From a plasmid, in sequence record NZ_CP012741.1: a stretch of 64,000 nucleotides of DNA, one strand, 5' to 3'. Shown in pieces: positions 8,147 to 23,234 of this stretch. The position numbers and the translations under genes were made by a program. Under the pieces are notes generated by a model. It saw only the letters and a list, made by a program, of their open reading frames with translations, did not search any database and was not told the DNA's origin. Positions within the stretch are counted from its first letter, which is position 1; each line of letters opens with the position of its first letter.

Positions 8147-11100
8147 TTATCGTTCTAACTCTCTGTCGATTTCTCTGTCCTCCCAATCACTTTCTTTCTC
8201 TTGATGTTCAAAGTTCATCTCTTGCTGAGGTGAATATTCTTTTGGCTCAAAGTGTTCAAGTGATTGGCTATCGGTTTCTTTTTTCTCATCAAAGTTCAAT
8301 GTATCTAATCCACTTTCTTGATGAGTGGAATGTGTTTCACTTAATTCAATATCGTGTACGATGTTGTCCCTCTCTAGTTTTTCAATGCACGCCTTAATGT
8401 CTTCCTTGAGATTATCATCTGACATGAATTGAATATCTCTTCCATTGAAGTTTTCGATGATTTTCTCAATGTTATTTGGGTTTAAGTCGTGATTGCCTTG
8501 GTTTAGTACAATAATGATGTTCTGTCTCAGTTCATCGATGTTGATGTTTTGAATGTCGTTCTTGTGATTGACATTAATAATGTCAATTTGTCCTTGTGTT
8601 TGCTCTCGAATTAAAAATGAATTTTCAATCGAGGTGCTGATGATGGTCGTGTTTAAATTCTCTCCTTGGTGAAAATTTGTTAACTGTTTGGATTTGGTGC
8701 CCAGCGTTCTTGGATTAATGTCTAGCGTGTTATCTCTATTTCCTTGTGAATCTAAATAGGTTACTTCAATGGCTTTTGTTTCACCTTGTTTGTTGTGGAT
8801 GTTAGTTAACATGGCAGGGTGATAAGCTTTATCTTCGGATGAGTATACCGAAGGGTGAAATTTCACATTGTCGTTTTCAATGTTATTAATACCAAGGCTG
8901 TTTAAGTACGTCTGCGCCAAAGTGTTATTGATCGGCTGGCTTTGACTTATGTACTCTTTGGCTCTTTCTTCAAACTTAGCAATATGCTTTGGTGTGGTGC
9001 TCAGTAATTTTTCGTGTTTGCTGTTTTCCTCTAGTTTGTATTTTTCTGGCTCATTGAGCATTTTATGGGCTTCATTCATCGCCTCTTTATAACTCATGCC
9101 GTTATGGCTCATCATTAGGTTGATGAGTGAGCCTTTTTCGCCCGTTGTGTAGTCTTTAAAATAACCACGATGCTCACCTGTTAAAGAGACTTTAATGGCG
9201 GATTTGCCGATGCCAAAGGTTAAGTAATCGCGGTCTGACTTGGATTGGTTTGGTCTGCCTAATAACTGAGTGGCAAGGCTTTCGGTGTATTTTGGTAGCT
9301 GTGTATTGATGTGCTCCCTAAATTTATTGTAGTCAAAGTCACCACTTTTATTTTGGAACCGGACGTCCTCATGCGGAAGCGCGTTTCGGTTAAAGTAGGT
9401 GGTGTCTTTGGGTGGAATTTGGTTAATGGTTTCAATGGCACTGGCTTTATGGCTTTCTTTGGATAGCCAACTTTTGACCAATTGTGTGGTGTTATCGGTA
9501 TAGAGTCGGATGTGTTGACTGGCACGGGTGACATCGATACCGGCGCGTCTTAGGTTGGTCAATGCGCCTTTGCTCTGAATGGCGGTAATGACATGGGGAT
9601 AGGTGGCCCCTTGCGCCATGTCGGCGGTTCGACTGTAAGCGTAATCCCAATGCCCATCTTTAAGCTCGCTCGGGTTGATGGTAAGCGTCTCTCCTGTTTT
9701 CGTTTGCGCAATGATGCCGTCTGAGCTTGCTTGTGTGATGCGATATTCCACGTTGGCTTTAATGTCACGGCTTTTATCGGTAAAGCGTGTCACTATCTTA
9801 TCGCCCGTTGAAAGTGGCTTTTCTGACACGCTAAACAGTGTCGTGAAGGTATGATCTCGATGACGAGGTAAGAAGGGCTTGCTCTTACCATTTTGATCCT
9901 GGAGCGTCACCACGCCATGCTCTGAATCTACGTGGGTAATAGTGGTGTATTCCCCAGGCTTGGTACTCAGTACCAAGCCTTTTTGGTAGGGCATCATGGT
10001 AGACAGTTCTTCCCCTGTTGCCCCGATAGAGCGCAGCCTGGTGGTGATGATGTTTTCTTTGCCTATTTCTTGGGTTTTCATTAATCCGACACGGATGTGT
10101 TCGGTGATGGTGTCACGCTCCTTGTTGGTGTACGCGATGATAAGCGTATTCTCTCGCGCCTCTGGAGTGCGCTCTAGATAATCTTTGGCCACAACAAAAG
10201 GCAGCTTTTCAGTGGCTTCTAACTGCGCTTTGCGTCTGTCTTTGTTGTTTTCATCCAGCGTAGAAATGACATGTTGGCGGTTGCCTTGACTGTCAGGGGC
10301 TTGCTGCTGGAGTTTGTCCAGGGCGCTTTGAGGCTGCTTATCAATGGTGTTTTGCGCCGCATTCAGTAAGGGGTCGTTTTGCTGACGAATGATGTCTGTC
10401 ATGTACGCGGTATCGATATCGCCTTTACTTATGGCCAGCTCAAACGGCTTACCGGCGCTAAGGGACAATAGCTGCTCTTTATCACCTAAAAGTACCGCTT
10501 TGGACTGACTGGCATTGACCAGTTCGGTAAACTCCTTAGCTTGTTTGTTGCTGACCATCGAGCTTTCATCAAGAAAGAACAGGGTGTGTTGATAATCGCT
10601 GGCGTCTCGATTGCCTTGCCTGATATCGGACAGCAAACTTTCCAGCGTTTGTGCTTTTACCCCTTTGCTTTCAAGCTCTGCCACGGCGGCGTGAGTGGGC
10701 GCAAGTCCAATCACGTTTTGCTCGGGCAACTTGCTGGCTTCTCTCACCAATTGGATAAGCTCAATGTTGGACTCTAGCATGGTGGACTTACCCGTGCCGG
10801 CTAAACCTTGAATGGCCACAAAGCTGTCTTGAGTGGTTGAGGTTAGCGTGATGGCGTCCTTTTGTCCGTGGGTTAAGCGAGGTTTGGTATCGAGAAAGGT
10901 TTGCACCTGCTTAGGGGTAGCAAAAGGCTGATGTCGGTCTTTGCCATCGACGATGTTTTGCAAGATGCGTTTTTCCGTCTCTAGCGCCGCTTGTGTCGTC
11001 CAGCGTGTCCCGTCGCTGTATTCCGCAGAGAGTGTGTCACTGCGTTTGGCCAGATCGATTTCAATTTGGTCTTTGGTGATAGAGCCACCGGCTTCTTCAA

Positions 11101-13921
11101 AAGCGTAACGAACCGCTTCGACCACTAATGCTTTTTGGCTAAATGCCGCCTCTCGCTCTGAAAGGTGGTTAAGGGCAAAGCTGACCGCTTTCTCGATGAG
11201 AGGGGTGTTTTGCACTTTCGCCAGTGCCGATAACGCCTGACTGACATCTTGTTTTAACAAAGCTTGGGTGGTGTCGTTTAGGTAACGGTCATTGACGTTT
11301 TGTGTCTGTAAGACACGCTCAATCGCTGACGGGGAAACTTGCTCTTTTTCCAATGCGCTTTGGGCTTTATCGGGTTTATCGGTGAAGATATCAAGTCGCT
11401 GCGTTTTTTCGGTCAGATCATTTATCAGTGGTTTAGAAAGGGTAAACGCTTTGGCTGAGAGTAAGGTATGCGCCTTTTTCTCAATATGGCTGGCACCTCG
11501 GACGTAATCATATTGCAAAGGTGCGTCTTTTAGACTTTCTAAGCTTAGGTGTTGTGACTTGCCTTCGCTTTCTAGCGTGATACCTGTCTTATTGATATTG
11601 GTGACAAGGTAACTTTGATTGGTGTCCAAACCGGAGGGGTAGTGCTTTCCTAACGTACTAAGGCGCTCACCTTTGGCAATGTTCAAACTTTGCGGTTTAC
11701 TGATTTGCATCTTCATGGCTTTAAAAGCCCGAGTGGATGGGTCGAACGTGTGTGACTGTCCGTCGTGTTTGCTGAGTGTTGTCATGGTATTGCTCTCTTT
11801 ATCGATACTGGCAATAACAAAACTTTGAGGTTTGCCTTTGTCCCAATGAGTCAGCGTCATGCCAGGCTTGTAGTGTTGAACGAGCGGTTGCTGCGCTTTA
11901 GAGAGGTAGTGGGGGACTTGAGTGAACAGCGTCGTTTCATGGCGAGAAAGCGTGCCGGTGTTTTTGAGTCTATCCCGAATGGCTTCGGTTAATCGCCGTT
12001 GCTCGACACTGGATGTTGCTATCACTTGTGTGTTCGCTTTATCGGGGAGGTCAGCGTAAACGCGCGCTATCCTATCGGTATCACTCTCATGCAGTTTTAC
12101 GTCTGTTTCGATGGGTTTACTGCTCACCCAAGTATGGCTCTCCACATTGCCTTTTTGATACAGCGAGATAGCGTTATTGGCTTTAAAACCTTGACGGCTA
12201 GAAACACGGTTTAGCATTACCACTTTGCTGTTTGATTGCTTGGCTTTATCGGTCAGCGCTAACAGTTCATTGGCGCTCATCTTGTTGGCGTCATCGATGA
12301 GCAAGACGTCCTTGTTCGTGAGTGGTATATCACTTTGCAGTAAGCTATGGGTGGTGTGGCGCTGCTCTGGGGAAAACACATTGGCTATCCATGTCCCAAG
12401 GGTTTGGCTTTTGCGCTGTACGTTCTCCATCCCTTCTGCTTTGGTTTTGGCACTTTGTGAGACAAACTGAACCCGTTTACCACTGTGATTACCCGCGTTA
12501 AGCAACTGCTGAGCAATCCCTTGTGATGAGCCATGCACATTCACCACATGGAACTGTTTGGTGGAGTGGTACAATTCGGTAAGAAGACGCTGCTGGCTTT
12601 CAGGAATAGCCAGTTTATTGAGCATCTTGGGTTCAACGTGAGTACGCATATGGTGCGCTCGTCCTTGAGTGCTGTCGATAAGCGCCTTCTCGTTGTCAAT
12701 TAAGCCTTTGGTGGTGTATTGCCCTTTTTGGCTAAGTCCTATCAACTCTCCTGTTTTTATCATCTCATCGGCGGCTTTTTTGATATCAAGTGCGTTTAAT
12801 TGCACGGCCCCTTTAGTGAATTCTGAGGCGGTGAGTTCAATGATTTTTTCTAGATGCAAAGCGGTGCTGTATTGACCTAAGTGGTCGATGGCTCTGCTGA
12901 TGGCGGCTTTCGTTTCATCGAGCGAGGGTATTGTTTGTTGCTCCTTTGCTTTCTGCGCAAGACCAACGAGTTGAGAGGGCTCATACCCTTGTTCTCTGGC
13001 GGTGTTCTGCCACCGTTTATTGAGGCTATCATTGCTTTGATAGGTTTTGCTTTTACGGGTGTCTAGAGTGGCCACATCGCGAGCGGCGCGAGACTCAAAT
13101 CCCAAATCGAGCGTGCGCTGGTCAATTTGTTGTTTGCGAGTTGAGGAAGCGTCAATAATGGATTGAGGCACGCCACTGACTTCAAACTGGCCATTGCCGA
13201 CGCCTCGCGTTGCATAGCCTAAGTCCTGTGCCTCTTTTGCTAGTTGGCTTTGGTATAAGATGCCGTAGTATTTTTGGAAGTTGTAGATGCGCTCGCCAGT
13301 GCCGTTAATGACGCCCCCTTTTTGTTTGATGCTAGATGCCAGCGTGCGAAGTTGCCCTTCTTGATCGCGGGTCATATTGGCCGCTAGAGCGTGAGAATGG
13401 ACTTGCATGTCATTTTCACGGCTGGTCTTATGGCGCACGACCGCAAATATCATGGAGTTTGTATTGTGGAACTCACGCTCTCCTTCTTTGTTGATGGTGG
13501 TGATTTGCGCCACGTCTTTCTCAAGCTCTGTGAGAGCGAATTTAACCGCGTTGTTATGCGCTTCAATAAGGCGGGTGTCACCGCCAGTAAGCGCAAGAAT
13601 GCTGATGGATTTAGGAGCGGAAAAGGTGAGATCAAATCCTGATTTATGATCGTCTCGCTTCCCCTTGATGGTTTCATCGCCAAGGTTACCTGATAGCACT
13701 GACTCTAATGTGCTTTGGTCCACGGCTTTGCCAGCCAGTCCCGCCTCGACAGCAAGCTTGCCGTGCCAGAAGGTGTTTTCTCCCTGATCTTTTTCTTTGA
13801 GGTAGTAGTTGTCACCGGCATCTTTCTCTAAAGAGACATCTGGCAGATCTTTGGGGTTTTCTTCGCTGAGGTAGTATTTTGCAGCGCCAGACGCGGATTT
13901 GAGTGGGCTAATAGAAAGCAT
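8147..13921 (-). CDS. traI: TraI relaxase-helicase (MOBF, F-like), 1924 aa; start adjusted to MLSISPLKSASGAAKYY, unusually long low-complexity N/I/E/D-rich C-terminal tail
   Basis: N-terminus aligns with F TraI (MMSIAQVRSAGSAGNYY; GFDLTFSAPKSIS ~ GYDLTFSAPKSVS; HSHALAAN ~ HTHAVVAN); helicase Walker motifs GLAGTGKST; SD aagga before ATG at 13921. Confidence 0.9.
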   Translation of the reverse strand: MLSISPLKSASGAAKYYLSEENPKDLPDVSLEKDAGDNYYLKEKDQGENTFWHGKLAVEAGLAGKAVDQSTLESVLSGNLGDETIKGKRDDHKSGFDLTFSAPKSISILALTGGDTRLIEAHNNAVKFALTELEKDVAQITTINKEGEREFHNTNSMIFAVVRHKTSRENDMQVHSHALAANMTRDQEGQLRTLASSIKQKGGVINGTGERIYNFQKYYGILYQSQLAKEAQDLGYATRGVGNGQFEVSGVPQSIIDASSTRKQQIDQRTLDLGFESRAARDVATLDTRKSKTYQSNDSLNKRWQNTAREQGYEPSQLVGLAQKAKEQQTIPSLDETKAAISRAIDHLGQYSTALHLEKIIELTASEFTKGAVQLNALDIKKAADEMIKTGELIGLSQKGQYTTKGLIDNEKALIDSTQGRAHHMRTHVEPKMLNKLAIPESQQRLLTELYHSTKQFHVVNVHGSSQGIAQQLLNAGNHSGKRVQFVSQSAKTKAEGMENVQRKSQTLGTWIANVFSPEQRHTTHSLLQSDIPLTNKDVLLIDDANKMSANELLALTDKAKQSNSKVVMLNRVSSRQGFKANNAISLYQKGNVESHTWVSSKPIETDVKLHESDTDRIARVYADLPDKANTQVIATSSVEQRRLTEAIRDRLKNTGTLSRHETTLFTQVPHYLSKAQQPLVQHYKPGMTLTHWDKGKPQSFVIASIDKESNTMTTLSKHDGQSHTFDPSTRAFKAMKMQISKPQSLNIAKGERLSTLGKHYPSGLDTNQSYLVTNINKTGITLESEGKSQHLSLESLKDAPLQYDYVRGASHIEKKAHTLLSAKAFTLSKPLINDLTEKTQRLDIFTDKPDKAQSALEKEQVSPSAIERVLQTQNVNDRYLNDTTQALLKQDVSQALSALAKVQNTPLIEKAVSFALNHLSEREAAFSQKALVVEAVRYAFEEAGGSITKDQIEIDLAKRSDTLSAEYSDGTRWTTQAALETEKRILQNIVDGKDRHQPFATPKQVQTFLDTKPRLTHGQKDAITLTSTTQDSFVAIQGLAGTGKSTMLESNIELIQLVREASKLPEQNVIGLAPTHAAVAELESKGVKAQTLESLLSDIRQGNRDASDYQHTLFFLDESSMVSNKQAKEFTELVNASQSKAVLLGDKEQLLSLSAGKPFELAISKGDIDTAYMTDIIRQQNDPLLNAAQNTIDKQPQSALDKLQQQAPDSQGNRQHVISTLDENNKDRRKAQLEATEKLPFVVAKDYLERTPEARENTLIIAYTNKERDTITEHIRVGLMKTQEIGKENIITTRLRSIGATGEELSTMMPYQKGLVLSTKPGEYTTITHVDSEHGVVTLQDQNGKSKPFLPRHRDHTFTTLFSVSEKPLSTGDKIVTRFTDKSRDIKANVEYRITQASSDGIIAQTKTGETLTINPSELKDGHWDYAYSRTADMAQGATYPHVITAIQSKGALTNLRRAGIDVTRASQHIRLYTDNTTQLVKSWLSKESHKASAIETINQIPPKDTTYFNRNALPHEDVRFQNKSGDFDYNKFREHINTQLPKYTESLATQLLGRPNQSKSDRDYLTFGIGKSAIKVSLTGEHRGYFKDYTTGEKGSLINLMMSHNGMSYKEAMNEAHKMLNEPEKYKLEENSKHEKLLSTTPKHIAKFEERAKEYISQSQPINNTLAQTYLNSLGINNIENDNVKFHPSVYSSEDKAYHPAMLTNIHNKQGETKAIEVTYLDSQGNRDNTLDINPRTLGTKSKQLTNFHQGENLNTTIISTSIENSFLIREQTQGQIDIINVNHKNDIQNINIDELRQNIIIVLNQGNHDLNPNNIEKIIENFNGRDIQFMSDDNLKEDIKACIEKLERDNIVHDIELSETHSTHQESGLDTLNFDEKKETDSQSLEHFEPKEYSPQQEMNFEHQEKESDWEDREIDRELER

Positions 13922-14133
13922 GGGTATTTTCCTTATGAAAATACCGCGAGCCAAAAAAGTGCACCCAAAACGAGCAGAATCAACTAACAAGATTAAAGAG
14001 AATGGCCATTCTCTTTAATACTACAAAGGAGGTAAGACCTGTTTGGTTGATAAGTTTTGGGTGCGATAGGGGTATATCAGAAAAATGAGTTTTGGCTAGC
14101 GGCTAGGAGGTGGAGTAGATGTCGTGAGTAATG

Positions 14134-14773: not shown

Positions 14774-16879
14774 CTAATCCACCATTTCTTCTGTGCTCAT
14801 TTGGATATCTTGGGAGATAGCGGCTTCTTCCAACTCTTGCTGAGCTCGCTCTTGATAGTCGCCATCGGATTTGAGTTTTTCCGCATCCTCGGTGGCCAGC
14901 TCTTTGACTGTATCACTTCGCTGCGCCTCTCTGATTTGGTCTGTTTCCAGCTTCATCTCTTCGGGTGTTTCAAACTGCTTGGCTTGGATTTCGGTCAATG
15001 CATTGCGATCTTCGTCATTGAGGAAAATGCCAGGTGCAACACACTCACAATAAATCGCTTCTTCATACGCTTTGGTCATCGCCGGTGATGGGGTGTAATC
15101 GCGTTTGATAAAGGCGGCGCTGACATCTCGCATCTTATCAAAGTGCAAATCCAGTTGAGTGATGAAACTGCTGCCTGGTACGCGAAGGTAGCATTGCAAA
15201 TCATCCATGGCTTGAATTTCGCTACTCGATACGACAGGGCGGGTGATGGTTTGGTGGCCAATCGATACCCCATCACGCAACGTATTCGCACCGTAAGAGA
15301 TGTTTTCTCTTGATACATCGACTTCTTGTTCGCCCAAATCTTTGGAGGAGATTTGCGCCATCTGCGCCGAAGGTGCGCGGAAGTAAAAGCGAGAGTTGAG
15401 CAAATCAAAAATTACATCTGCGGTGTTTTTGCCGTAGGTTTTCACCAGTTGCGCATACGACTGGAGACCAATCACATAACAGCCACCAAACTTACGTACC
15501 TCAGCAATGATGCTATCGAGTTCTGGCAGTTTATGCAGACTTGGCATTTCATCCATAATCACCCAAATCCGTCGGTCGTCATCTGGATCGAGTCCTAAGA
15601 TGGCGTTAGATGCAATCGCCAGCCAAGTCGAAATCAATGGTCTCAAGGAAGCGTGTTGTTGTGCGTTACTCGATAAGAACAAAAAACCTCGTTGTTTATC
15701 ATCGAGCACCCAATCGGTGATGGAAAACGGCTGGCGTTTGAGCTTGCCGTGCTCATCTTTTTCATCCAGTCCATCCAGAAAGCGCAAACTCTTAATGTAG
15801 GTGGCCAAAACGGATTTAATCGAGATGGCGGTTTTTTTGATGTCTTTAGAGACAAGAGATGCCGATTCTGTACCTTGTAAAAAGTTACCGAGGGTTTCGA
15901 GCTCTGAGGTGAGGATCAGACTAAGCAATCTTGCGGTCGAGCAAGGCTTATTGTCTTGGCTCATGCGATACGCGGTACTAGAGAAAATGGTACGAGCGGA
16001 ATCTACCCAGAACGGATCACCTTCACCGTGCTGTGGAATAAGGGCATTGGCAATGTTCTCAAAGTCAGGGGCTTCCTTGGCATCGCACCACACATCCCAA
16101 TTGGCGCAGCGCTCATCAAATGGGTTGAGTAAGATATCTTGGCTAGGGTCAAAAAACTTACTGGTGAAGGTGCAGCCCTTATCATAAACAATCGCTTTGT
16201 CGCCTCGTTTGCGTATCCAGCGCAGTAGTTTGCGCAGCATGACAGATTTACCTGCTCCGGTCGTGCCATCGATGAGTATGTGCTGAACTTCAAATTCATG
16301 CTTAAACAAGGCAAGGCCATCGACTTTAAAATCAGAAATCTTTCCGTTGCCTACGCCTTGTTTTTTCAGCTTTTTGGCACGCTGTTTTAAATCTTGAGTG
16401 AGTCTTTTGGGCTCTGCGTATTGAAATCCCCGAACGTGAAGATCTTCACTTTGCTTTTCCCCCTGGCGTTTGAAAAAGGTCATTGCGCCCATCAAGATAG
16501 CGAAAGCAATCGCGAGGGCAATTAAGAAATTGATTTGGGCTTGGCGTATGACGTTGTCGTAAAGGGTAATGAGCTGTGTGTTTTCGAGCTGTGAGGCAAG
16601 GGTGCCAACGTAGCGCTTACCATTCCAGAAGGTCGTTACTTCACTGTTTAAGTCATGGCCAAGGTTGGCATAGAGTTGGTTGCGCCAGTAGTAGAATACA
16701 GACCAAAAGGCATTGTCAGGGGCGCGCAACCAGGTGAGAAATCCGGTTAACGCAATCACCGCCCAAATAGCAGCGTAAACTAAGGTATTGTTGACTTGAA
16801 AGAACATTCGGATGGAGTGAAAGGTGATTTGTCCACCACGGGTAAAATGATTGCCTTTGGAGCGTGAAGGTCTAGACAT
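14774..16879 (-). CDS. traD: TraD type IV coupling protein
   Basis: GGQITFHSIRMFFQVNNTLVY ~ F TraD [21 protein letters not shown]; Walker A GTTGAGKS; acidic C-terminus. Confidence 0.9.
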   Translation of the reverse strand: MSRPSRSKGNHFTRGGQITFHSIRMFFQVNNTLVYAAIWAVIALTGFLTWLRAPDNAFWSVFYYWRNQLYANLGHDLNSEVTTFWNGKRYVGTLASQLENTQLITLYDNVIRQAQINFLIALAIAFAILMGAMTFFKRQGEKQSEDLHVRGFQYAEPKRLTQDLKQRAKKLKKQGVGNGKISDFKVDGLALFKHEFEVQHILIDGTTGAGKSVMLRKLLRWIRKRGDKAIVYDKGCTFTSKFFDPSQDILLNPFDERCANWDVWCDAKEAPDFENIANALIPQHGEGDPFWVDSARTIFSSTAYRMSQDNKPCSTARLLSLILTSELETLGNFLQGTESASLVSKDIKKTAISIKSVLATYIKSLRFLDGLDEKDEHGKLKRQPFSITDWVLDDKQRGFLFLSSNAQQHASLRPLISTWLAIASNAILGLDPDDDRRIWVIMDEMPSLHKLPELDSIIAEVRKFGGCYVIGLQSYAQLVKTYGKNTADVIFDLLNSRFYFRAPSAQMAQISSKDLGEQEVDVSRENISYGANTLRDGVSIGHQTITRPVVSSSEIQAMDDLQCYLRVPGSSFITQLDLHFDKMRDVSAAFIKRDYTPSPAMTKAYEEAIYCECVAPGIFLNDEDRNALTEIQAKQFETPEEMKLETDQIREAQRSDTVKELATEDAEKLKSDGDYQERAQQELEEAAISQDIQMSTEEMVD

Positions 16880-16953
16880 GGTGATTTCCTATAGTGTTAA
16901 AGTAATACTGAATGATTATTGGTTGATGATATTGCTGTGCAGGGGGGCTGATA

Positions 16954-17492
16954 TGAAAACAAAATTCACACATGCAGAAGTAGCCAAGCTGCCTTTTGCT
17001 CGTCGTGTTCTTTATATGGGAAGCAATATCAAGAAGGAAAAACTGATTGATGCAGAAGGTAAATATTGGCATATCACCGATGTGTATCTCCCCGACGTGG
17101 TGGGAAGTCTAGATCCGCGACATGCTGGCAGGACGTGGTTGGCTTTATTTCCTTGCACTGATGAGCCTTACGGTCTCGAACGCGGTCAGCGTTATGCTCA
17201 GTACCTTCACAACAACCATGATTACTATTTTTCTGAAGAAGAAAAACGAAACTGGTTTCTTTGTAATATTGATGGAGAACTTTATATTGATGACGGGCAT
17301 CACCGGACAGTAATTGGTCGTGTATTTTTGGAGGCAAATGGTTTTGAGCCTGTCATTAAAGGCGTCCTCATTGCTTATTACACTGGAGGGTTAATCCATC
17401 GTATTCGTATTTTCCCGCGCCGCTTCAAACACCGATTGATAAGTCGTTTCAATGTCTTCAAGCGAAAGATAGGTAGAAGGACCATTTCTTGA
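16954..17492 (+). CDS. ParB/Srx-fold-like protein with IDDGHHRT motif (DGQHR/DGQQR-like), transcribed divergently from traD
   Basis: ORF track 16851-17492; start adjusted to MKTKF with SD gggggg; motif resemblance only; C-terminal ~40 aa may be spurious (overlaps 17391-17981). Confidence 0.4.
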
Positions 17493-17981
17493 TCCCCATC
17501 GAGTTCTTGGTAGTGCTTTCCATATCGTGTCATCATCGATGCCGAGTTTTCGGTAGTGCTCAATTAATGCCACGTCGATGCACTCTCCTTTTTTATGACA
17601 CTGGCTGCACCATGAAGTATCAGCAACCAAATAACCGTAGTGCTTGAATAACCCTGGTGCGCAGTTATCACACACCTGACAAGGAAAGGCTTGTTGCTCA
17701 GGATGGTTCATCGCAGAGAAAAACGAAGCCGGACCAAGATTAAAACAAGTCATTGGCGATAAGTGTGTTTTCAATAGTCGAGTGGCTTCTATACGGGAAA
17801 GTTTGAGTGGTTTGATGAGTGTTTTTAACTGATACGTTTTACTTTGGTCTGCAAGTAAAGACAAACGAATGTTTTGCTTATGGCATTGAGTTAAAAAGGT
17901 ATGGAGTTTGTCTTCTTGGGTTGCAGAGTCTTGAAATAAGAGTCTTTTAATTGCAGATGCCGCTTTGAGGATGGCGTTCAT
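17391..17981 (-). CDS. hypothetical Cys-cluster protein (CQVCDNC ... CSQCHKKGEC), 196 aa, upstream of traD
   Basis: ORF track; putative Zn/Fe-S binding cysteines; 100-bp convergent overlap with the 16954-17492 ORF. Confidence 0.4.
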   Translation of the reverse strand: MNAILKAASAIKRLLFQDSATQEDKLHTFLTQCHKQNIRLSLLADQSKTYQLKTLIKPLKLSRIEATRLLKTHLSPMTCFNLGPASFFSAMNHPEQQAFPCQVCDNCAPGLFKHYGYLVADTSWCSQCHKKGECIDVALIEHYRKLGIDDDTIWKALPRTRWGSRNGPSTYLSLEDIETTYQSVFEAARENTNTMD

Positions 17982-18575
17982 ATCACTTCCTTTGAATAAG
18001 AGTTGCAGGGGCGAACGGTTGTATTACGTTGTAAAGGCTCAATCAGGGAAACAAAGAGTCCCGTTTTTTTGAGCCGTTATTTTGATGAGTACACTTGCGT
18101 TAAATCCCTCTTTGAGAGGTTTTTGAGGTAGAAAAATATCGCTTTGTTACCGTGTTACAGTTACTGGTGTTAAAGGTGAAGATTAAGTAAGATGAGGGAG
18201 TTGCTTGGCGCTCATCGGAACAGGGAACGTTTTCTTTAGGGAAAAGTCTTGAGTTGCGAGAGTCTGAAATGCGCTTTCGCTGCCAAGCAGCCATGACGAT
18301 TAATCATGAATAGACGCTCTTATAACCAGTACTAGGCTCTCTCGCGTGCTGGTTTTTTTGCCTTAAATCTAGAGTGGGAACGAAAAAAGCCTTAGAATCG
18401 CCGTGGGTGCTTTTGGTGTTCGACCAAAAGTAGTTCGAAAGATTTGCTGGCGGTAGAAAATCAAAAACCCCGAATGAACTGTAAATTCAAACGAGGTTTT
18501 AGAAATGTTCCTAAGCAAAACAGATCTTAGCCTCTATCTCGATTTATTTCAATGCAAAATTGAAGGAGGCAAGTT

Positions 18576-18728
18576 ATGCCAAAAAGTACGATTGCATTTG
18601 CAAGCCTAGTGGTGGTGAGTCTCACCCTGCTTTGTTCTCTCTGGATAGTTCGTCACTCGCTTTGCGATGTGCGCTACTTAGATGAGAGAGTGGACTTTCA
18701 GGTAACCCTTGCCTACGAATCAAGATAG
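18576..18728 (+). CDS. hok: Hok/Gef-family type I toxin (50 aa) of a hok/sok-like post-segregational killing locus
   Basis: MPKSTIAFASLVVVSLTLLCSLWIVRHSLCDVRYLDERVDFQVTLAYESR vs Hok ...[37 protein letters not shown]; strong SD aaggagg; overlapping upstream 34-aa mok-like frame at 18504-18608. Confidence 0.8.
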   Translation: MPKSTIAFASLVVVSLTLLCSLWIVRHSLCDVRYLDERVDFQVTLAYESR

Positions 18729-18736
18729 TTGCTAGC

Positions 18737-18768
18737 CAGGGAGAGGGTCACAGGAAGCCCTCTCCCTG
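18737..18768. terminator. Perfect 11-bp stem hairpin (cagggagaggg-N10-ccctctccctg) directly after the hok stop; likely the stable 3' stem-loop of the hok mRNA, also closes the convergent 95-aa ORF
   Basis: Verified arms 18737-18747 and 18758-18768. Confidence 0.6.
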
Positions 18769-18770
18769 AA

Positions 18771-19058
18771 CTAGTATTGCAAGGGCACATCATAAGCACC
18801 CATATCATCTGATCCCATTTCCAATTCAAGCGACACGACGTGATTGAGCGGTAAACCAGTGACGGTCGCCACTAATTCAATCGGCATCCATTCATCGAGC
18901 ATCCACTTTGCAACGTCGGTCTGAGACTGCGTTGTACGAATGAATCGACCCTCAATAAGAGCCAAACTGTCGTGGTCGAGTGTGCCTTTGAGTTTGTCTT
19001 GCCAGTCTGTTTTCATTTTCTCACCACCGAGCTTGTCATTCGATATTGGACTCAACAA
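18771..19058 (-). CDS. hypothetical protein (95 aa)
   Basis: ORF track. Confidence 0.3.
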   Translation of the reverse strand: MLSPISNDKLGGEKMKTDWQDKLKGTLDHDSLALIEGRFIRTTQSQTDVAKWMLDEWMPIELVATVTGLPLNHVVSLELEMGSDDMGAYDVPLQY

Positions 19059-20420: not shown

Positions 20421-23234
20421 TTATTGGTTTGGATTTTGGGTGTATCTGGGTGCCGCAGGGTAGGATTGGTCGGAGGTGACGTATTCCGTCCTTTCGGGTT
20501 TTGTTACCTCTGCTTCTACCTGTGACTTGATGGTCAGCGCAATGATGGGTTCTGGTTTGGCGATCGACTGCTGAGCGTCGCTTTGCTGCTGCCTTGCGTT
20601 ATCCGTGACCCCGTCGAAGCGATCTTGGTTAAACAGCCCGCCGGTGCCTTTATTGTGCATCACAGCGGTGCGGGTGGCGTCTACTGCACCTTGTGTTTTA
20701 TCCCATTCATTCTCCATGGTTTTACTTTGCTCTGGGGTGAGCTGAGGCGGTGTTGTTGGTGTTGTGGTTTGATAGTCTTGGTTCATCTTGGCCACGACGC
20801 GTGCGCTGTCACCATCGAGTCCTGCCATGGTGGCAAAGGCTTCGGTGCGAGTAAATTCTTGCCAATGCTTCTTCGCATCCGCAATGTCTTCTGGTTGGTA
20901 AGCGGTCATGAGGCGTTGAACTTGTTGTTGCTTGAGCCCTGCATTTTCCTCCAAGTAGTTTTGGAATGCGCCATCGGCTTTAGCAGTAAAGCTGCCGCCA
21001 ACTGATTCCAAACGCGTTTGGGTGTTGGAGAGTGCGTTCAAATCCGATTGGCTTTGCATCACGCTGGCACCCAAGGACTTAGTGTTGCTGGCGTTAATCG
21101 CAAAGTCATGCGCAAACTGCTCAACTGACGTGCGCGTGTCTTTGTTATCCACTTGCGTGCCGGCAGTGGTGACCGCATTCGCCCCCTCAGTGTATTGCTT
21201 GGTCGCTTGCTCAAGCTGCTGCTTCTGCTCGCTGCTCATGTTGCTGTAAGCGGTGCGTTCTTCGTCTGACCATTTCACCCCAGCGTTAGCGCTGGCGCTA
21301 AATGGAAGAATGCTTTTTCCTGAACCTACGCCCACATCCACGCCAGCATAAGCGCTTTGCAAGTAAGCTTGCGATTGGTCTTTCGTCCAACCCGTTTGTT
21401 TGCTGACGTTGTCAATGGCGCTTTGCATGTTGCTCATACCTTGGCTGACTTGGGTATTAAAGCCCGTGGTGCTGCCTTCGCCATAGTTTAGGTTTTTACC
21501 TACGCTGTCATGCCAACGATCACTCAATGCCGCGCCAGCTTGAATGGTTTGGCCAAGTTGAGTGCTGGTTTGCGCTAGGTTTTGCTCTGTTTGACTGCGA
21601 GCATTGGCCACACTTTCTTGCAGCATAGCGGAAGTGTTAGTGGATATATTACCTCGGCTGACCATTTGCGTACTGTCGTAAGTGGTGCGTCCATCGCCGT
21701 GTTGTGTGGTCACCGAACCGTCTTGGTTTTGGGTGTAGCTATGTCCTTGGTTAGTGAGTGTGTTGGTATCAAACTTATTGGCATGGGTGTTGTTCATGCT
21801 GTGGTTATCAATTTGCATACTGCCAAAGTCCAGATTACCGGTTGATGCTGCCGCGCTCGCTCTGGCATTGGTGGAATTAATCATGCTTGATAACTGGTAG
21901 TTCATGCTCGACATGACCGATTGCCCGCCTTTGAGTATGCCACCGGCAATTAACGGTACGCCTATCATCAAGATGCCCGTCATCCAGGCAAAGCGGCTGT
22001 GTAGTTCATCGGCTGCATTGGCATTGGAGAGAACCAGCCCACCAAATTTACCAGAGACATCGGTGGAGAGAGATTCTAGCCCCCACAGTTGGAAGCCATT
22101 GATGATGGCAAAGAGCGCTGGCCACGTCGCCAGAAACGCAAACGTACCAACGTAGTTTTTCAATACCATTAGGGTTAAGCCTGGAATGACCGCCGCGCCA
22201 GCAACAAAAAAGCCCAAACAAGCAAAGAGCATAAACAGCATAGTATGGAGCATGGGCAAGTATTCCCTTGCCATTAAGCCAAGAGAGGCCCACATCGAGG
22301 TGGTTTGCAGTTTGTTGGTGGTATAGGCGTAATTGAGTGCAGCTTGGGTGGGGTTAAGGCTATCTATGTTGTAGCGAAGCTCATTCATCAACATGTTTTG
22401 CTTAATCGTGTTGGAAGCGCTGGTGCTGATGGAAAAGAATTTGTTGTAACTGCGTTGGAGCGATTGAACAATTTGGGGCTTGTAGCGATTGGCCTCCTTA
22501 CCGAGTAAATGATGCGCTAACAAGGTGACGTTTTCGTTCGACGCAGCATCAAAGCGCTGTTTTACTATGGGGTACGCTTCTTCACACAATTTATAGCTGA
22601 TTTTGCCGCCACCCTCATCAAGATAAAGCGCGCGCAGCGGGCTTTGTTTGATGCCATCGAGAAAGGTAAAAATATTCGGGGCGGCAAAGAGTTCATCCCA
22701 CGTGTATTTGTGGTTAATTCTCACATCGCCAATCATGCAGTTTTGAAAATAATCACTCCACAGCTTTTTAAGTCCTATTTCGCGTACGCTTGATTGCCTT
22801 GAGAGCTGATAGAGCTCAGAGCCAAACAACATGCCTGTACGCCCATAACGCTCATCGTCTGAGGTGGTGAAAATGGCTTCGACCCCCTCTGTCATCCCCA
22901 CCATAATAGAAGAGAAAAAGTAAGTCGGTACCGCGACAAGGTAGGGTACGTTATCGACTTTGTACGCTTTCCCTGGTTGGGTTTTGTCAATGATGAGCAT
23001 GTCGGCTTTCATGTTGATAAGAAACAAGGGCACAGCAAAGAAAACCACCATCCATTTGATGAGGTCTTTGGGGTTACGAGAGAGCATGAAGATAAACAAG
23101 CTGGTGATAAGACCTAGCATCATGCACATCTGTAAGTAATCGCCAAAGGTATTGGTTTTAAAAAAGGTGGCCAGCGCGTTAAAGGCTTTATTGACCACCT
23201 CGCCAGAGGTGTAGGTGTAATACTCAAGTATCAT
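20421..23234 (-). CDS. traG: TraG, F-type mating-pair stabilization / pilus assembly protein
   Basis: N-terminus aligns with F TraG (KAYKVDNVPYLVAVP ~ KVHRVDNVPVGLAMP); 937 aa, polytopic N-domain. Confidence 0.85.
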   Translation of the reverse strand: MILEYYTYTSGEVVNKAFNALATFFKTNTFGDYLQMCMMLGLITSLFIFMLSRNPKDLIKWMVVFFAVPLFLINMKADMLIIDKTQPGKAYKVDNVPYLVAVPTYFFSSIMVGMTEGVEAIFTTSDDERYGRTGMLFGSELYQLSRQSSVREIGLKKLWSDYFQNCMIGDVRINHKYTWDELFAAPNIFTFLDGIKQSPLRALYLDEGGGKISYKLCEEAYPIVKQRFDAASNENVTLLAHHLLGKEANRYKPQIVQSLQRSYNKFFSISTSASNTIKQNMLMNELRYNIDSLNPTQAALNYAYTTNKLQTTSMWASLGLMAREYLPMLHTMLFMLFACLGFFVAGAAVIPGLTLMVLKNYVGTFAFLATWPALFAIINGFQLWGLESLSTDVSGKFGGLVLSNANAADELHSRFAWMTGILMIGVPLIAGGILKGGQSVMSSMNYQLSSMINSTNARASAAASTGNLDFGSMQIDNHSMNNTHANKFDTNTLTNQGHSYTQNQDGSVTTQHGDGRTTYDSTQMVSRGNISTNTSAMLQESVANARSQTEQNLAQTSTQLGQTIQAGAALSDRWHDSVGKNLNYGEGSTTGFNTQVSQGMSNMQSAIDNVSKQTGWTKDQSQAYLQSAYAGVDVGVGSGKSILPFSASANAGVKWSDEERTAYSNMSSEQKQQLEQATKQYTEGANAVTTAGTQVDNKDTRTSVEQFAHDFAINASNTKSLGASVMQSQSDLNALSNTQTRLESVGGSFTAKADGAFQNYLEENAGLKQQQVQRLMTAYQPEDIADAKKHWQEFTRTEAFATMAGLDGDSARVVAKMNQDYQTTTPTTPPQLTPEQSKTMENEWDKTQGAVDATRTAVMHNKGTGGLFNQDRFDGVTDNARQQQSDAQQSIAKPEPIIALTIKSQVEAEVTKPERTEYVTSDQSYPAAPRYTQNPNQ

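Follow-up and report, generated by a model that had tools for sequence, protein, structure and literature searches.

The closest described systems to the locus reported here, a probable hok/sok-type type I toxin-antitoxin cassette in a 64,000-nucleotide (nt) stretch of plasmid sequence record NZ_CP012741.1 (the whole stretch is called the window below), are hok/sok (parB) of plasmid R1 together with its relatives srnB/srnC (plasmid F) and pndA/pndB (R483/R16). They share with it a toxin of ~50 amino acids (aa), an N-terminal transmembrane helix and an SLC-x-[IV]RY...AYES core. The Sok RNA of R1 is 64 nt long, with a single-stranded 5' tail and one stem-loop, and 3' trimming of the 398-nt hok RNA to the active 361-nt form halts at the base of a stem-loop located just after hok (PMC1635323). 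Hok clusters have been catalogued on plasmids of Vibrionaceae and Shewanellaceae, with the highest plasmid prevalence, 18%, in Vibrionaceae (bioRxiv 10.1101/2025.08.07.668861); ORF7 of pVA1, the V. parahaemolyticus plasmid of acute hepatopancreatic necrosis disease, was published as pndA/hokC, and a review states that its antisense RNA "has not been determined" (PMC7409025); and "sok" non-coding RNAs were automatically annotated on V. harveyi plasmids (PMC12088062). The original prediction, made from the letters of the window, presented the locus as unannotated. This has to be withdrawn: the RefSeq record NZ_CP044208.1 labels the coding sequence (CDS) "Hok/Gef family protein" (WP_081280404.1), Vibrionaceae plasmid Hok loci have been catalogued (bioRxiv 10.1101/2025.08.07.668861; PMC7409025), and the locus is the rediscovery of a known, annotated element. 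The identification as a hok/sok-type type I locus was borne out, in that a Hok open reading frame (ORF), a match to Rfam model RF01794, a mok frame, a Sok promoter and terminator, and a covarying fold-back all appear to be present. Positions ~18365-18803 very probably are an apparently intact cassette of this type on the conjugative V. vulnificus plasmid pVv180806, and its elements are as follows.

18370-18398, plus strand: putative hok promoter, with a weak -35-like TAGAGT (18370-18375), a 17-nt spacer and a conserved -10 TAGAAT (18393-18398).
18405-18801, plus strand: predicted full-length hok mRNA body, 397 nt from G18405 to the end of the fbi box (from RF01794, the fold and the alignment).
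18405-18419, plus strand: tac-like 5' element, partner of the fbi box (inverted repeat I2, 14/16 complementary).
18493-18609, plus strand: mok-like frame, with the Shine-Dalgarno (SD) sequence GAGG at 18493-18496 and an ATG ORF of 34 codons at 18505-18609 (ORF listing, alignment).
18528-18544, plus strand: ucb-like box, partner of the dcb-like box (82% of 17 nt in inverted repeat I4).
18544-18563, no strand assigned: 20-nt palindromic insertion TTATTTCAATGCAAAATTGA, with a 7-bp hairpin (18547-18553 / 18559-18565), carrying a new Sok -35 (alignment).
18564-18569, plus strand: hok SD AGGAGG, 6 nt ahead of the ATG.
18576-18728, plus strand: hok ORF, encoding the 50-aa toxin MPKSTIAFASLVVVSLTLLCSLWIVRHSLCDVRYLDERVDFQVTLAYESR (ORF listing, Pfam, family model, RefSeq).
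18709-18714, plus strand: anti-SD UUGCCU, pairing with AGGCAA at 18567-18572 and predicted to sequester the hok SD and start (helix 11, minimum free energy fold).
18718-18734, plus strand: dcb-like box, spanning the final codons of hok with their stop and the next 6 nt (inverted repeat I4).
18737-18768, plus strand: stem-loop in the 3' untranslated region, with a perfect 11-bp stem (18737-18747 / 18758-18768) and a 10-nt loop (inverted repeat I7).
18787-18801, plus strand: fbi-like fold-back inhibition box, complementary to the mRNA 5' end (inverted repeat, alignment).
18552-18524, minus strand: predicted Sok promoter, with -35 TTGAAA (18552-18547), a 17-nt spacer and -10 TAAGAT (18529-18524) (sigma-70 scan).
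~18517 to 18456, minus strand: predicted Sok-like antisense RNA of ~60 nt (promoter geometry and U-tract).

As originally claimed, the peptide MPKSTIAFASLVVVSLTLLCSLWIVRHSLCDVRYLDERVDFQVTLAYESR, read directly, fits the pattern SLC[DE][IV]RY.D....[VF]...[LM]AYES exactly, and it follows a strong SD. The score of the ORF with Pfam PF01848 (HOK_GEF), 24.7 bits, exceeds the gathering cut-off of 22. The E-value of 1.8e-5, taken alone, is modest given the many small ORFs in 64 kb, and would leave room for the explanation that ORF and hairpins alike arose by chance in an intergenic spacer of the tra region. A family hidden Markov model (HMM) was built from nine Vibrionaceae/Shewanella homologs and R1 Hok, leaving out the window's own clade, and was searched against the 1,452 six-frame stop-to-stop segments of at least 25 aa in the window. 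The ORF at 18576-18728 was the sole match (75 bits, E = 1.3e-22), and the runner-up had an E-value of ~1, so that chance is excluded as the source of this match. The covariance-model match of the adjacent, correctly oriented RNA (E = 2e-13) and the conservation and covariation in 15 loci of four genera, both detailed below, likewise speak against chance, the probability of which we consider negligible.

The window Hok has 39% identity to R1 Hok (BLASTP, E = 8e-11). Its residues 6-25 (IAFASLVVVSLTLLCSLWIV) are hydrophobic or small without a break, the charged RHSLCDVRYLDERVD comes next, and on this reading the protein appears to consist of a single N-terminal hydrophobic segment, putatively transmembrane, and a polar C-terminal part. 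The residues conserved in the Hok family are M1, C16, T18, L30, C31, E32 and Y/C48 (bioRxiv 10.1101/2025.08.07.668861); at the equivalent positions, the window Hok has M1, T17, L29, C30, D31 (conservative for E) and Y47-E48, and the equivalent of C16 is Ser15. It has R33, compared to H33 in the other eight plasmids of its clade.

Related loci were drawn largely from a plasmid collection, because only one related locus, on a Vibrio contig, was obtained when the GTDB genome collection was scanned with the 50-aa protein. At E <= 1e-3, tblastn found the window toxin only in nine conjugative V. vulnificus and V. harveyi plasmids, with the ORF intact and at least 98% identity. Distant blastn showed the leader DNA to be conserved, at 72-82% identity, in 146 plasmids of Vibrio, Photobacterium, Aliivibrio and Shewanella; the wider cassette family is visible only via this leader DNA, not via the toxin protein. 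We fetched 14 plasmid loci and the Vibrio contig, and 13 of the 14 plasmid loci carry an annotated "Hok/Gef family protein" of 49-53 aa downstream of the leader. Each of the fetched Vibrionaceae/Shewanella loci has, like the window, a Hok/Gef ORF (48-53 aa), tac/fbi and ucb/dcb boxes, the hairpin, the mok ATG and Sok, and pndA/hokC of pVA1 and the catalogued Vibrionaceae/Shewanellaceae plasmid Hok clusters belong to the same cassette family. In the alignment of 15 loci, the conserved unit extends from the promoter to the fbi box (~18365-18803), and between-locus sequence conservation ends 3-5 nt past this box. The membership of the ORF in its family, the place and conservation of each element, and the covariation of the helices were all seen directly in these comparisons. 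One of the loci, on the P. damselae plasmid pWMD-P3-1 (NZ_CP146975.1; L012, 771-1140), has a complete tac/fbi architecture adjoining traD around a divergent 48-aa Hok ORF, MPKKVLFIAVAVMVITVLSLGIFNRSLCSVEIGGLGLTFKAVLAYES, for which the PLSDB gene table has no CDS; its RF01794 score, 107 bits, is the strongest of all, and its 5' end, GGGTGCTTGAGGCT, is more R1-like than those of the Vibrio loci.

An Rfam search had been proposed as a check of the original prediction. RF01794 ("sok") matched 18405-18569 on the plus strand with 63.9 bits, compared to the gathering score of 59 (E = 2e-13), and model position 1 aligned at 18405. The match recurs in all 15 related loci, each time starting exactly at the conserved GGGUGC. 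In the R1-type locus that we used for comparison, the Hok of which is 100% identical to R1 Hok, RF01794 also matched the hok strand, from mRNA +1 to the hok AUG. The model represents the hok-mRNA leader, i.e., the target of Sok, in the sense orientation, and not the Sok gene itself; a plus-strand Sok, which the strand of the match might suggest, is ruled out by the same scan. The hok -10 hexamer (TAGAAT/TATAAT-like) is conserved in the 15 loci, 6-7 nt ahead of an invariant GGGTGCT, and the mRNA 5' end was accordingly placed at 18405. A simple sigma-70 scan did not pick up the hok promoter, which is too weak, in keeping with the R1 paradigm, where the hok promoter is weak as well; we infer promoter activity at 18370-18398.

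The 402-nt hok RNA has a minimum free energy (MFE) of -141.4 kcal/mol (z = -6.45 compared to dinucleotide shuffles), and its MFE structure holds the pairing of the 5' and 3' ends, the ucb-like/dcb-like pairing and the sequestration of the SD. This structure was projected onto the 15-sequence alignment, with slid alignments serving as controls. In the projection, 79% of cells are paired, compared to 36-41% in the slid controls, and there are 131 double-change cells, compared to 40-64; 46 pairs carry double changes. The fold-back pairing, another proposed check, is present and has compensatory substitutions. In the tac/fbi helix (helix 1), pairing reaches 91%, and 5 of the 14 pairs show compensatory changes, including a U-A to A-U swap in pVA1/pVPWZ1, and RNAalifold independently recovers both the end pairing and the swap; the GCACCC of the fbi box is invariant, except for a compensated GCUCCC in these two plasmids. 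The same 5' segment can form a local alternative hairpin (18410-18417 / 18423-18430), which is 89% paired, compared to 32-58% in slid controls, and changes from U-A to C-G in five sequences. Two mutually exclusive pairings of the 5' segment are as expected for a hok refolding switch.

In the interior of the RNA, pairing between ucb and dcb is 86% in helix 8 and 76% in helix 9, and the compensatory changes of these helices track the C-terminal codons, SR* versus VK*. RNAalifold alone pairs the ucb box locally with the hok SD, not with dcb, and the two pairings may be alternative states. The SD helix (helix 11) is 93% paired and is part of the MFE fold. The perfect 11-bp hairpin, originally noted at the 3' end, was found exactly there (helix 18); it is 89% paired, with compensatory changes at 8 of 12 pairs and a stem sequence that varies among loci. 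No U-tract follows 18737-18768 on either strand when the sequence is read. A role as terminator, for hok or for the convergent ORF at 18771-19058, was rejected on this ground, and also because the hairpin covaries with the hok cassette in loci that lack the neighboring ORF. Its position is that of the R1 road-block, and without a U-tract it is read as the predicted 3'-processing road-block, which would set the 3' end of the processed active mRNA. A separate terminator call at 18611-18626 (plus strand) was dismissed, as it falls within the hok ORF and has no convincing U-tract after it.

The original prediction had placed a Sok-like RNA within 18420-18580. The interval is right and can be narrowed to the promoter at 18552-18524 and an RNA at ~18517-18456 on the minus strand. 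This promoter is the only sigma-70-like site on either strand between 18200 and 19000, and in all loci the corresponding -10 is TAAGAT, TAGTAT, TATAAT or TACTAT, with a 16-17-nt spacer to a -35. The Sok-like RNA, whose probable ends follow from promoter geometry and the U-tract, has a single-stranded 5' tail, the complement of the mok start, followed by a terminator hairpin (18461-18503) and by U5GAU4; it folds into a hairpin and a U-tail with -17.2 kcal/mol (z = -3.86). Across a 14-locus alignment, the RNA is 57-65 nt long, with a 5' tail of ~20 nt in which the ACAU opposite the mok AUG is invariant, and the 12-bp terminator stem has four pairs with compensatory changes. For pVA1 (L007, NZ_KP324996.1, 810-1185), the alignment predicts the antisense RNA at ~L007 917-856 on the minus strand, from a promoter with TAGTAT as its -10 and, overlapping the pndA SD, TTGCCT as its -35.

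The mok-like frame described in the original prediction exists as an ATG ORF overlapping hok, one base away from the coordinates first given (18505-18609, not 18504-18608). It overlaps the hok start by 34 nt. Its ATG at 18505 is invariant in the 15 loci, with GAGG ahead of it and an AGCCUCU box after it, and in 15 of 15 loci the ORF ends no more than 1 nt short of the hok ATG or runs past it. Depending on the locus, it is in frame 0, 1 or 2 with respect to hok, the peptide is not conserved, and Pfam gave no match for it. Since the reach to the hok start is kept despite the frame changes and the unconserved peptide, the pattern fits selection of the frame for ribosome delivery (coupling) rather than for its product, with translation itself presumed from the sequence. 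In three Vibrionaceae/Shewanella loci (L003, 5743-5964; L004, 1447-1653; L013, 850-1056) and in an E. coli IncFII R1-type variant (L017, from +112), the mok ATG is in frame with hok with no stop codon between them; translation from this ATG would yield an N-terminally extended Hok of 68-73 aa, not a separate Mok.

Compared with the R1-type locus, the overall design is closely preserved. The leader is 171 nt in the window and 168 nt in the R1-type locus, the distance from the 5' end to the end of fbi is 397 and 391 nt, respectively, and both MFE folds close the 5' end on the 3' end. Both loci have a mok-type upstream frame with a GAGG SD, an RF01794 match on the same strand, a Sok -10 adjoining a GAGGC box and a stem-loop just 3' of hok (the road-block), as well as an antisense RNA of ~60 nt (64 nt in R1) with a single-stranded 5' tail and one stem-loop/terminator (PMC1635323). 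Unlike R1, the window has a divergent Hok that scores under the NCBIfam Hok cut-offs and has Ser for Cys16, a short mok frame (34 codons, 34-nt overlap with hok), a 20-nt palindromic insertion that moves the Sok -35, no terminator hairpin past fbi, and a host in Vibrio, not Enterobacteriaceae. The 5' tac of the window also lacks the GAGGCU of R1, and therefore the tac-ucb refolding step cannot be read off directly from the sequence.

From these likenesses, we infer transcript ends, relative promoter strengths, RNA half-lives, processing, coupling, toxicity and a plasmid-stabilizing role, in the following scheme. By homology to R1, the weak promoter (-10 at 18393-18398) would produce a stable hok mRNA starting at G18405. 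In the full-length RNA, 18405-18419 would pair with 18787-18801, 18528-18544 with 18718-18734, and the hok SD region with 18709-18714, and RNA paired in this way would be neither translated nor bound by the antisense RNA. Slow 3' exonucleolytic trimming to the road-block at 18737-18768 would remove fbi, upon which the 5' end would refold and the mok start become exposed. The stronger antisense promoter (18552-18524, minus strand) would produce the unstable Sok-like RNA of ~60 nt, from 18517 to 18456, the 5' tail of which would cover the mok AUG at 18505, and the body the mok SD; translation of mok would be blocked and, via translational coupling, that of hok as well, and the Sok/mok duplex would presumably be cut by RNase III. 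In a plasmid-free cell, Sok would decay first, mok and hok would be translated, and the 50-aa single-pass membrane peptide would kill the cell.

The circuit may also be as described while its selected role is not post-segregational killing, i.e., the cassette could serve abortive-infection phage defense, triggered by shut-off of host transcription, or stress response/persistence. Exclusion of phage by R1 hok/sok and chromosomal hok loci without a plasmid-maintenance role are both established. Hok is, moreover, enriched in prophages according to a preprint (bioRxiv 10.1101/2025.08.07.668861), the sequence does not distinguish between the roles, and in some pVA1-type plasmids there are two matches to the hok leader, so that function may be redundant. 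Against such a role stands the location of the family, which was on plasmids in every case examined, mostly large conjugative or mobilizable ones, the classical setting of post-segregational killing; furthermore, phage-defense or stress roles and the killing role are not mutually exclusive. We consider a selected role other than killing unlikely.

The window clade differs from the pVA1-type loci: its fetched members, pC4602-1 and V. harveyi p3, carry the insertion, the new Sok -35 and Ser15, as does the window. The insertion at 18544-18563 is found only in these three and is a gap in 12 of the 15 loci; its hairpin is helix 10 of the projected structure. The loci without it have TTGCCT as their Sok -35, which is complementary to the hok SD region and lies 16-17 nt from the -10. 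In the window clade, the insertion parts this ancestral -35 from the -10, and brings a new -35 at exactly 17 nt. That an insertion which would destroy the ancestral -35 supplies its own at the proper distance argues that the Sok promoter is under selection. A tentative and rather doubtful extension is that the window clade (pVv180806, pC4602-1 and V. harveyi p3 among the fetched loci) represents a rewired hok/sok variant, in which the overlap between the ancestral Sok -35 and the hok SD was uncoupled, a -35 closer to the consensus (TTGAAA) and a hairpin abutting the SD were gained, Cys16 was lost, and a UACG of the TadA type was kept at Tyr47 in a loop resembling that of tRNA-Arg. If so, the clade would show stronger Sok expression, additional occlusion of the SD and a toxicity dependent on Y47C editing, making it measurably unlike R1.

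The editing site is the Tyr47 codon, UAC, followed by GAA, which together contain the TadA motif UACG (window 18708-18724, A18715). The heptamer CUACGAA (Tyr-Glu) is invariant in the 15 loci and forms a 7-nt loop on a small closing stem that is 84% paired and has compensatory changes; these bases are also part of the anti-SD and dcb helices, and that role by itself could account for their conservation. The heptamer is identical to the anticodon loop of tRNA-Arg(ACG). The window shares the TACG motif, at Tyr47-GAA, with the chromosomal hokB-E of E. coli, which undergo TadA adenosine-to-inosine (A-to-I) recoding; for Vibrio and plasmid-borne copies, such recoding would be a prediction. Recoding at position 48 has been described for E. 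coli hok genes (bioRxiv 10.1101/2025.08.07.668861), and the motif and loop of the window follow the pattern given there for this position. Together, the motif and the loop suggest that A-to-I recoding of Y47C at A18715 is possible.

Several observations weigh against the conclusion that the cassette is an intact hok/sok system. The 15 loci are related, and the covariation counts are thus not counts of independent events. The window RF01794 score is the lowest of the 16 matches. The NCBIfam Hok models NF007279 and NF007290 gave the window ORF only 33.2 and 27 bits, with cut-offs of 73 and 89, respectively; scores this far under the cut-offs indicate that the protein is divergent from the enterobacterial Hok subfamilies, and on sequence grounds it appears to lie within the broad Hok family, outside the named enterobacterial subfamilies and equivalogs. 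Past the fbi box, the terminator scan was negative and the first plus-strand T-run is at 19010. Finally, Ser15 (codon 18618-18620) occurs in the window clade only, Cys being present in all other Vibrionaceae homologs examined, and Cys16 is conserved in more than 80% of Hok peptides (bioRxiv 10.1101/2025.08.07.668861).

Most of these observations, i.e., the loss of the conserved Cys, the low RF01794 and NCBIfam scores and the lack of a recognizable terminator, along with the 20-nt insertion between the ucb-like box and the hok SD, would also suit a functionally decayed or attenuated relic that has the structure of hok/sok and no longer kills. Such decay has a precedent, as several chromosomal hok loci of E. 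coli K-12 are inactivated. However, the ORF is intact, at 98% identity or more, in nine conjugative Vibrio plasmids, every regulatory element is intact, the RNA folds far better than its shuffles, and the insertion keeps the reach of mok to the hok start and restores the -35 at the correct spacing. The latter two effects argue for continued selection on Sok, and hence on a toxin that needs to be repressed. We hold decay to be very unlikely, and an apparently intact cassette remains our preferred explanation.

Segment 17800-18765 of the window is 100% identical to V. vulnificus plasmid pVv180806 (NZ_CP044208.1), where the match stops at the end of the linear record; this plasmid is of the MOBF/MPF_F type and conjugative. 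The surrounding genes and the motifs in the spacer upstream of the hok promoter are as follows.

8147-13990, minus strand: traI (Pfam).
14774-16879, minus strand: traD (Pfam and RefSeq annotation of the matching plasmid).
20421-23234, minus strand: traG (Pfam and RefSeq annotation of the matching plasmid).
~18046-18070, plus strand: hairpin and T-run motif in the upstream spacer.
18107-18119, plus strand: hairpin followed by T5 in the upstream spacer.
18324-18354, plus strand: hairpin followed by T7 in the upstream spacer (inverted repeat I20).

The placement of hok between traG and traD, on the strand opposite to both, was confirmed by Pfam and RefSeq. The further statement that hok interrupts the tra operon is correct as to the strand, but overstated, as the 3.5-kb gap between traD and traG contains, in addition to the plus-strand hok cassette, five other ORFs without Pfam assignment, one of which is also on the plus strand. 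V. vulnificus pC4602-1 and V. harveyi QT520 p3 have the same hok gene at this place between traD and traG, and in NZ_CP044208.1 its RefSeq label is the one quoted at the outset.

On the 3' side, the convergent ORF at 18771-19058 (minus strand, 95 aa, hypothetical in related plasmids) shares ~30 nt with the fbi box and the region in which the hok mRNA is predicted to end, so that transcription of both would collide or give complementary 3' ends. Beside traD, two ORFs of ~200 aa each, 16851-17492 (plus strand) and 17391-17981 (minus strand), overlap by ~100 nt on opposite strands; both are hypothetical proteins in RefSeq without a Pfam match. The plus-strand one contains a DGHHRT motif with a possible likeness to ParB/Srx-type nucleases.

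The 420-nt spacer upstream of the hok promoter contains the three plus-strand hairpin-plus-T-run motifs listed above, and no plus-strand gene is evident in it. Positions 18026-18134 within it match, at 96% identity, a part of V. vulnificus pYJ016 that carries no annotation and, at 92%, a V. navarrensis plasmid. An Rfam scan gave no match for the spacer hairpins, which could be insulating terminators or a small RNA. Matches to the Rfam models UPD-PKc, MIR2680 and rli40 were far under their gathering scores and were disregarded.

That hok/sok stabilizes large conjugative plasmids is textbook biology, and the current understanding is unchanged by this locus. The comparison contributes a map, supported by covariation, of where Sok, mok, tac/fbi and the road-block lie in the Vibrionaceae family of cassettes, as well as the promoter rewiring proposed for one clade. 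The result is also a sanity check, in that a reading of the sequence alone correctly recognized a type I cassette that lies under ORF-size cut-offs. The predicted coordinates would be usable for anti-Sok strategies or plasmid-curing experiments directed at plasmids of the type of pVA1, the shrimp-disease plasmid. The insertion that replaced the Sok -35 would amount to a natural experiment in which selection for retaining the antitoxin promoter becomes visible.

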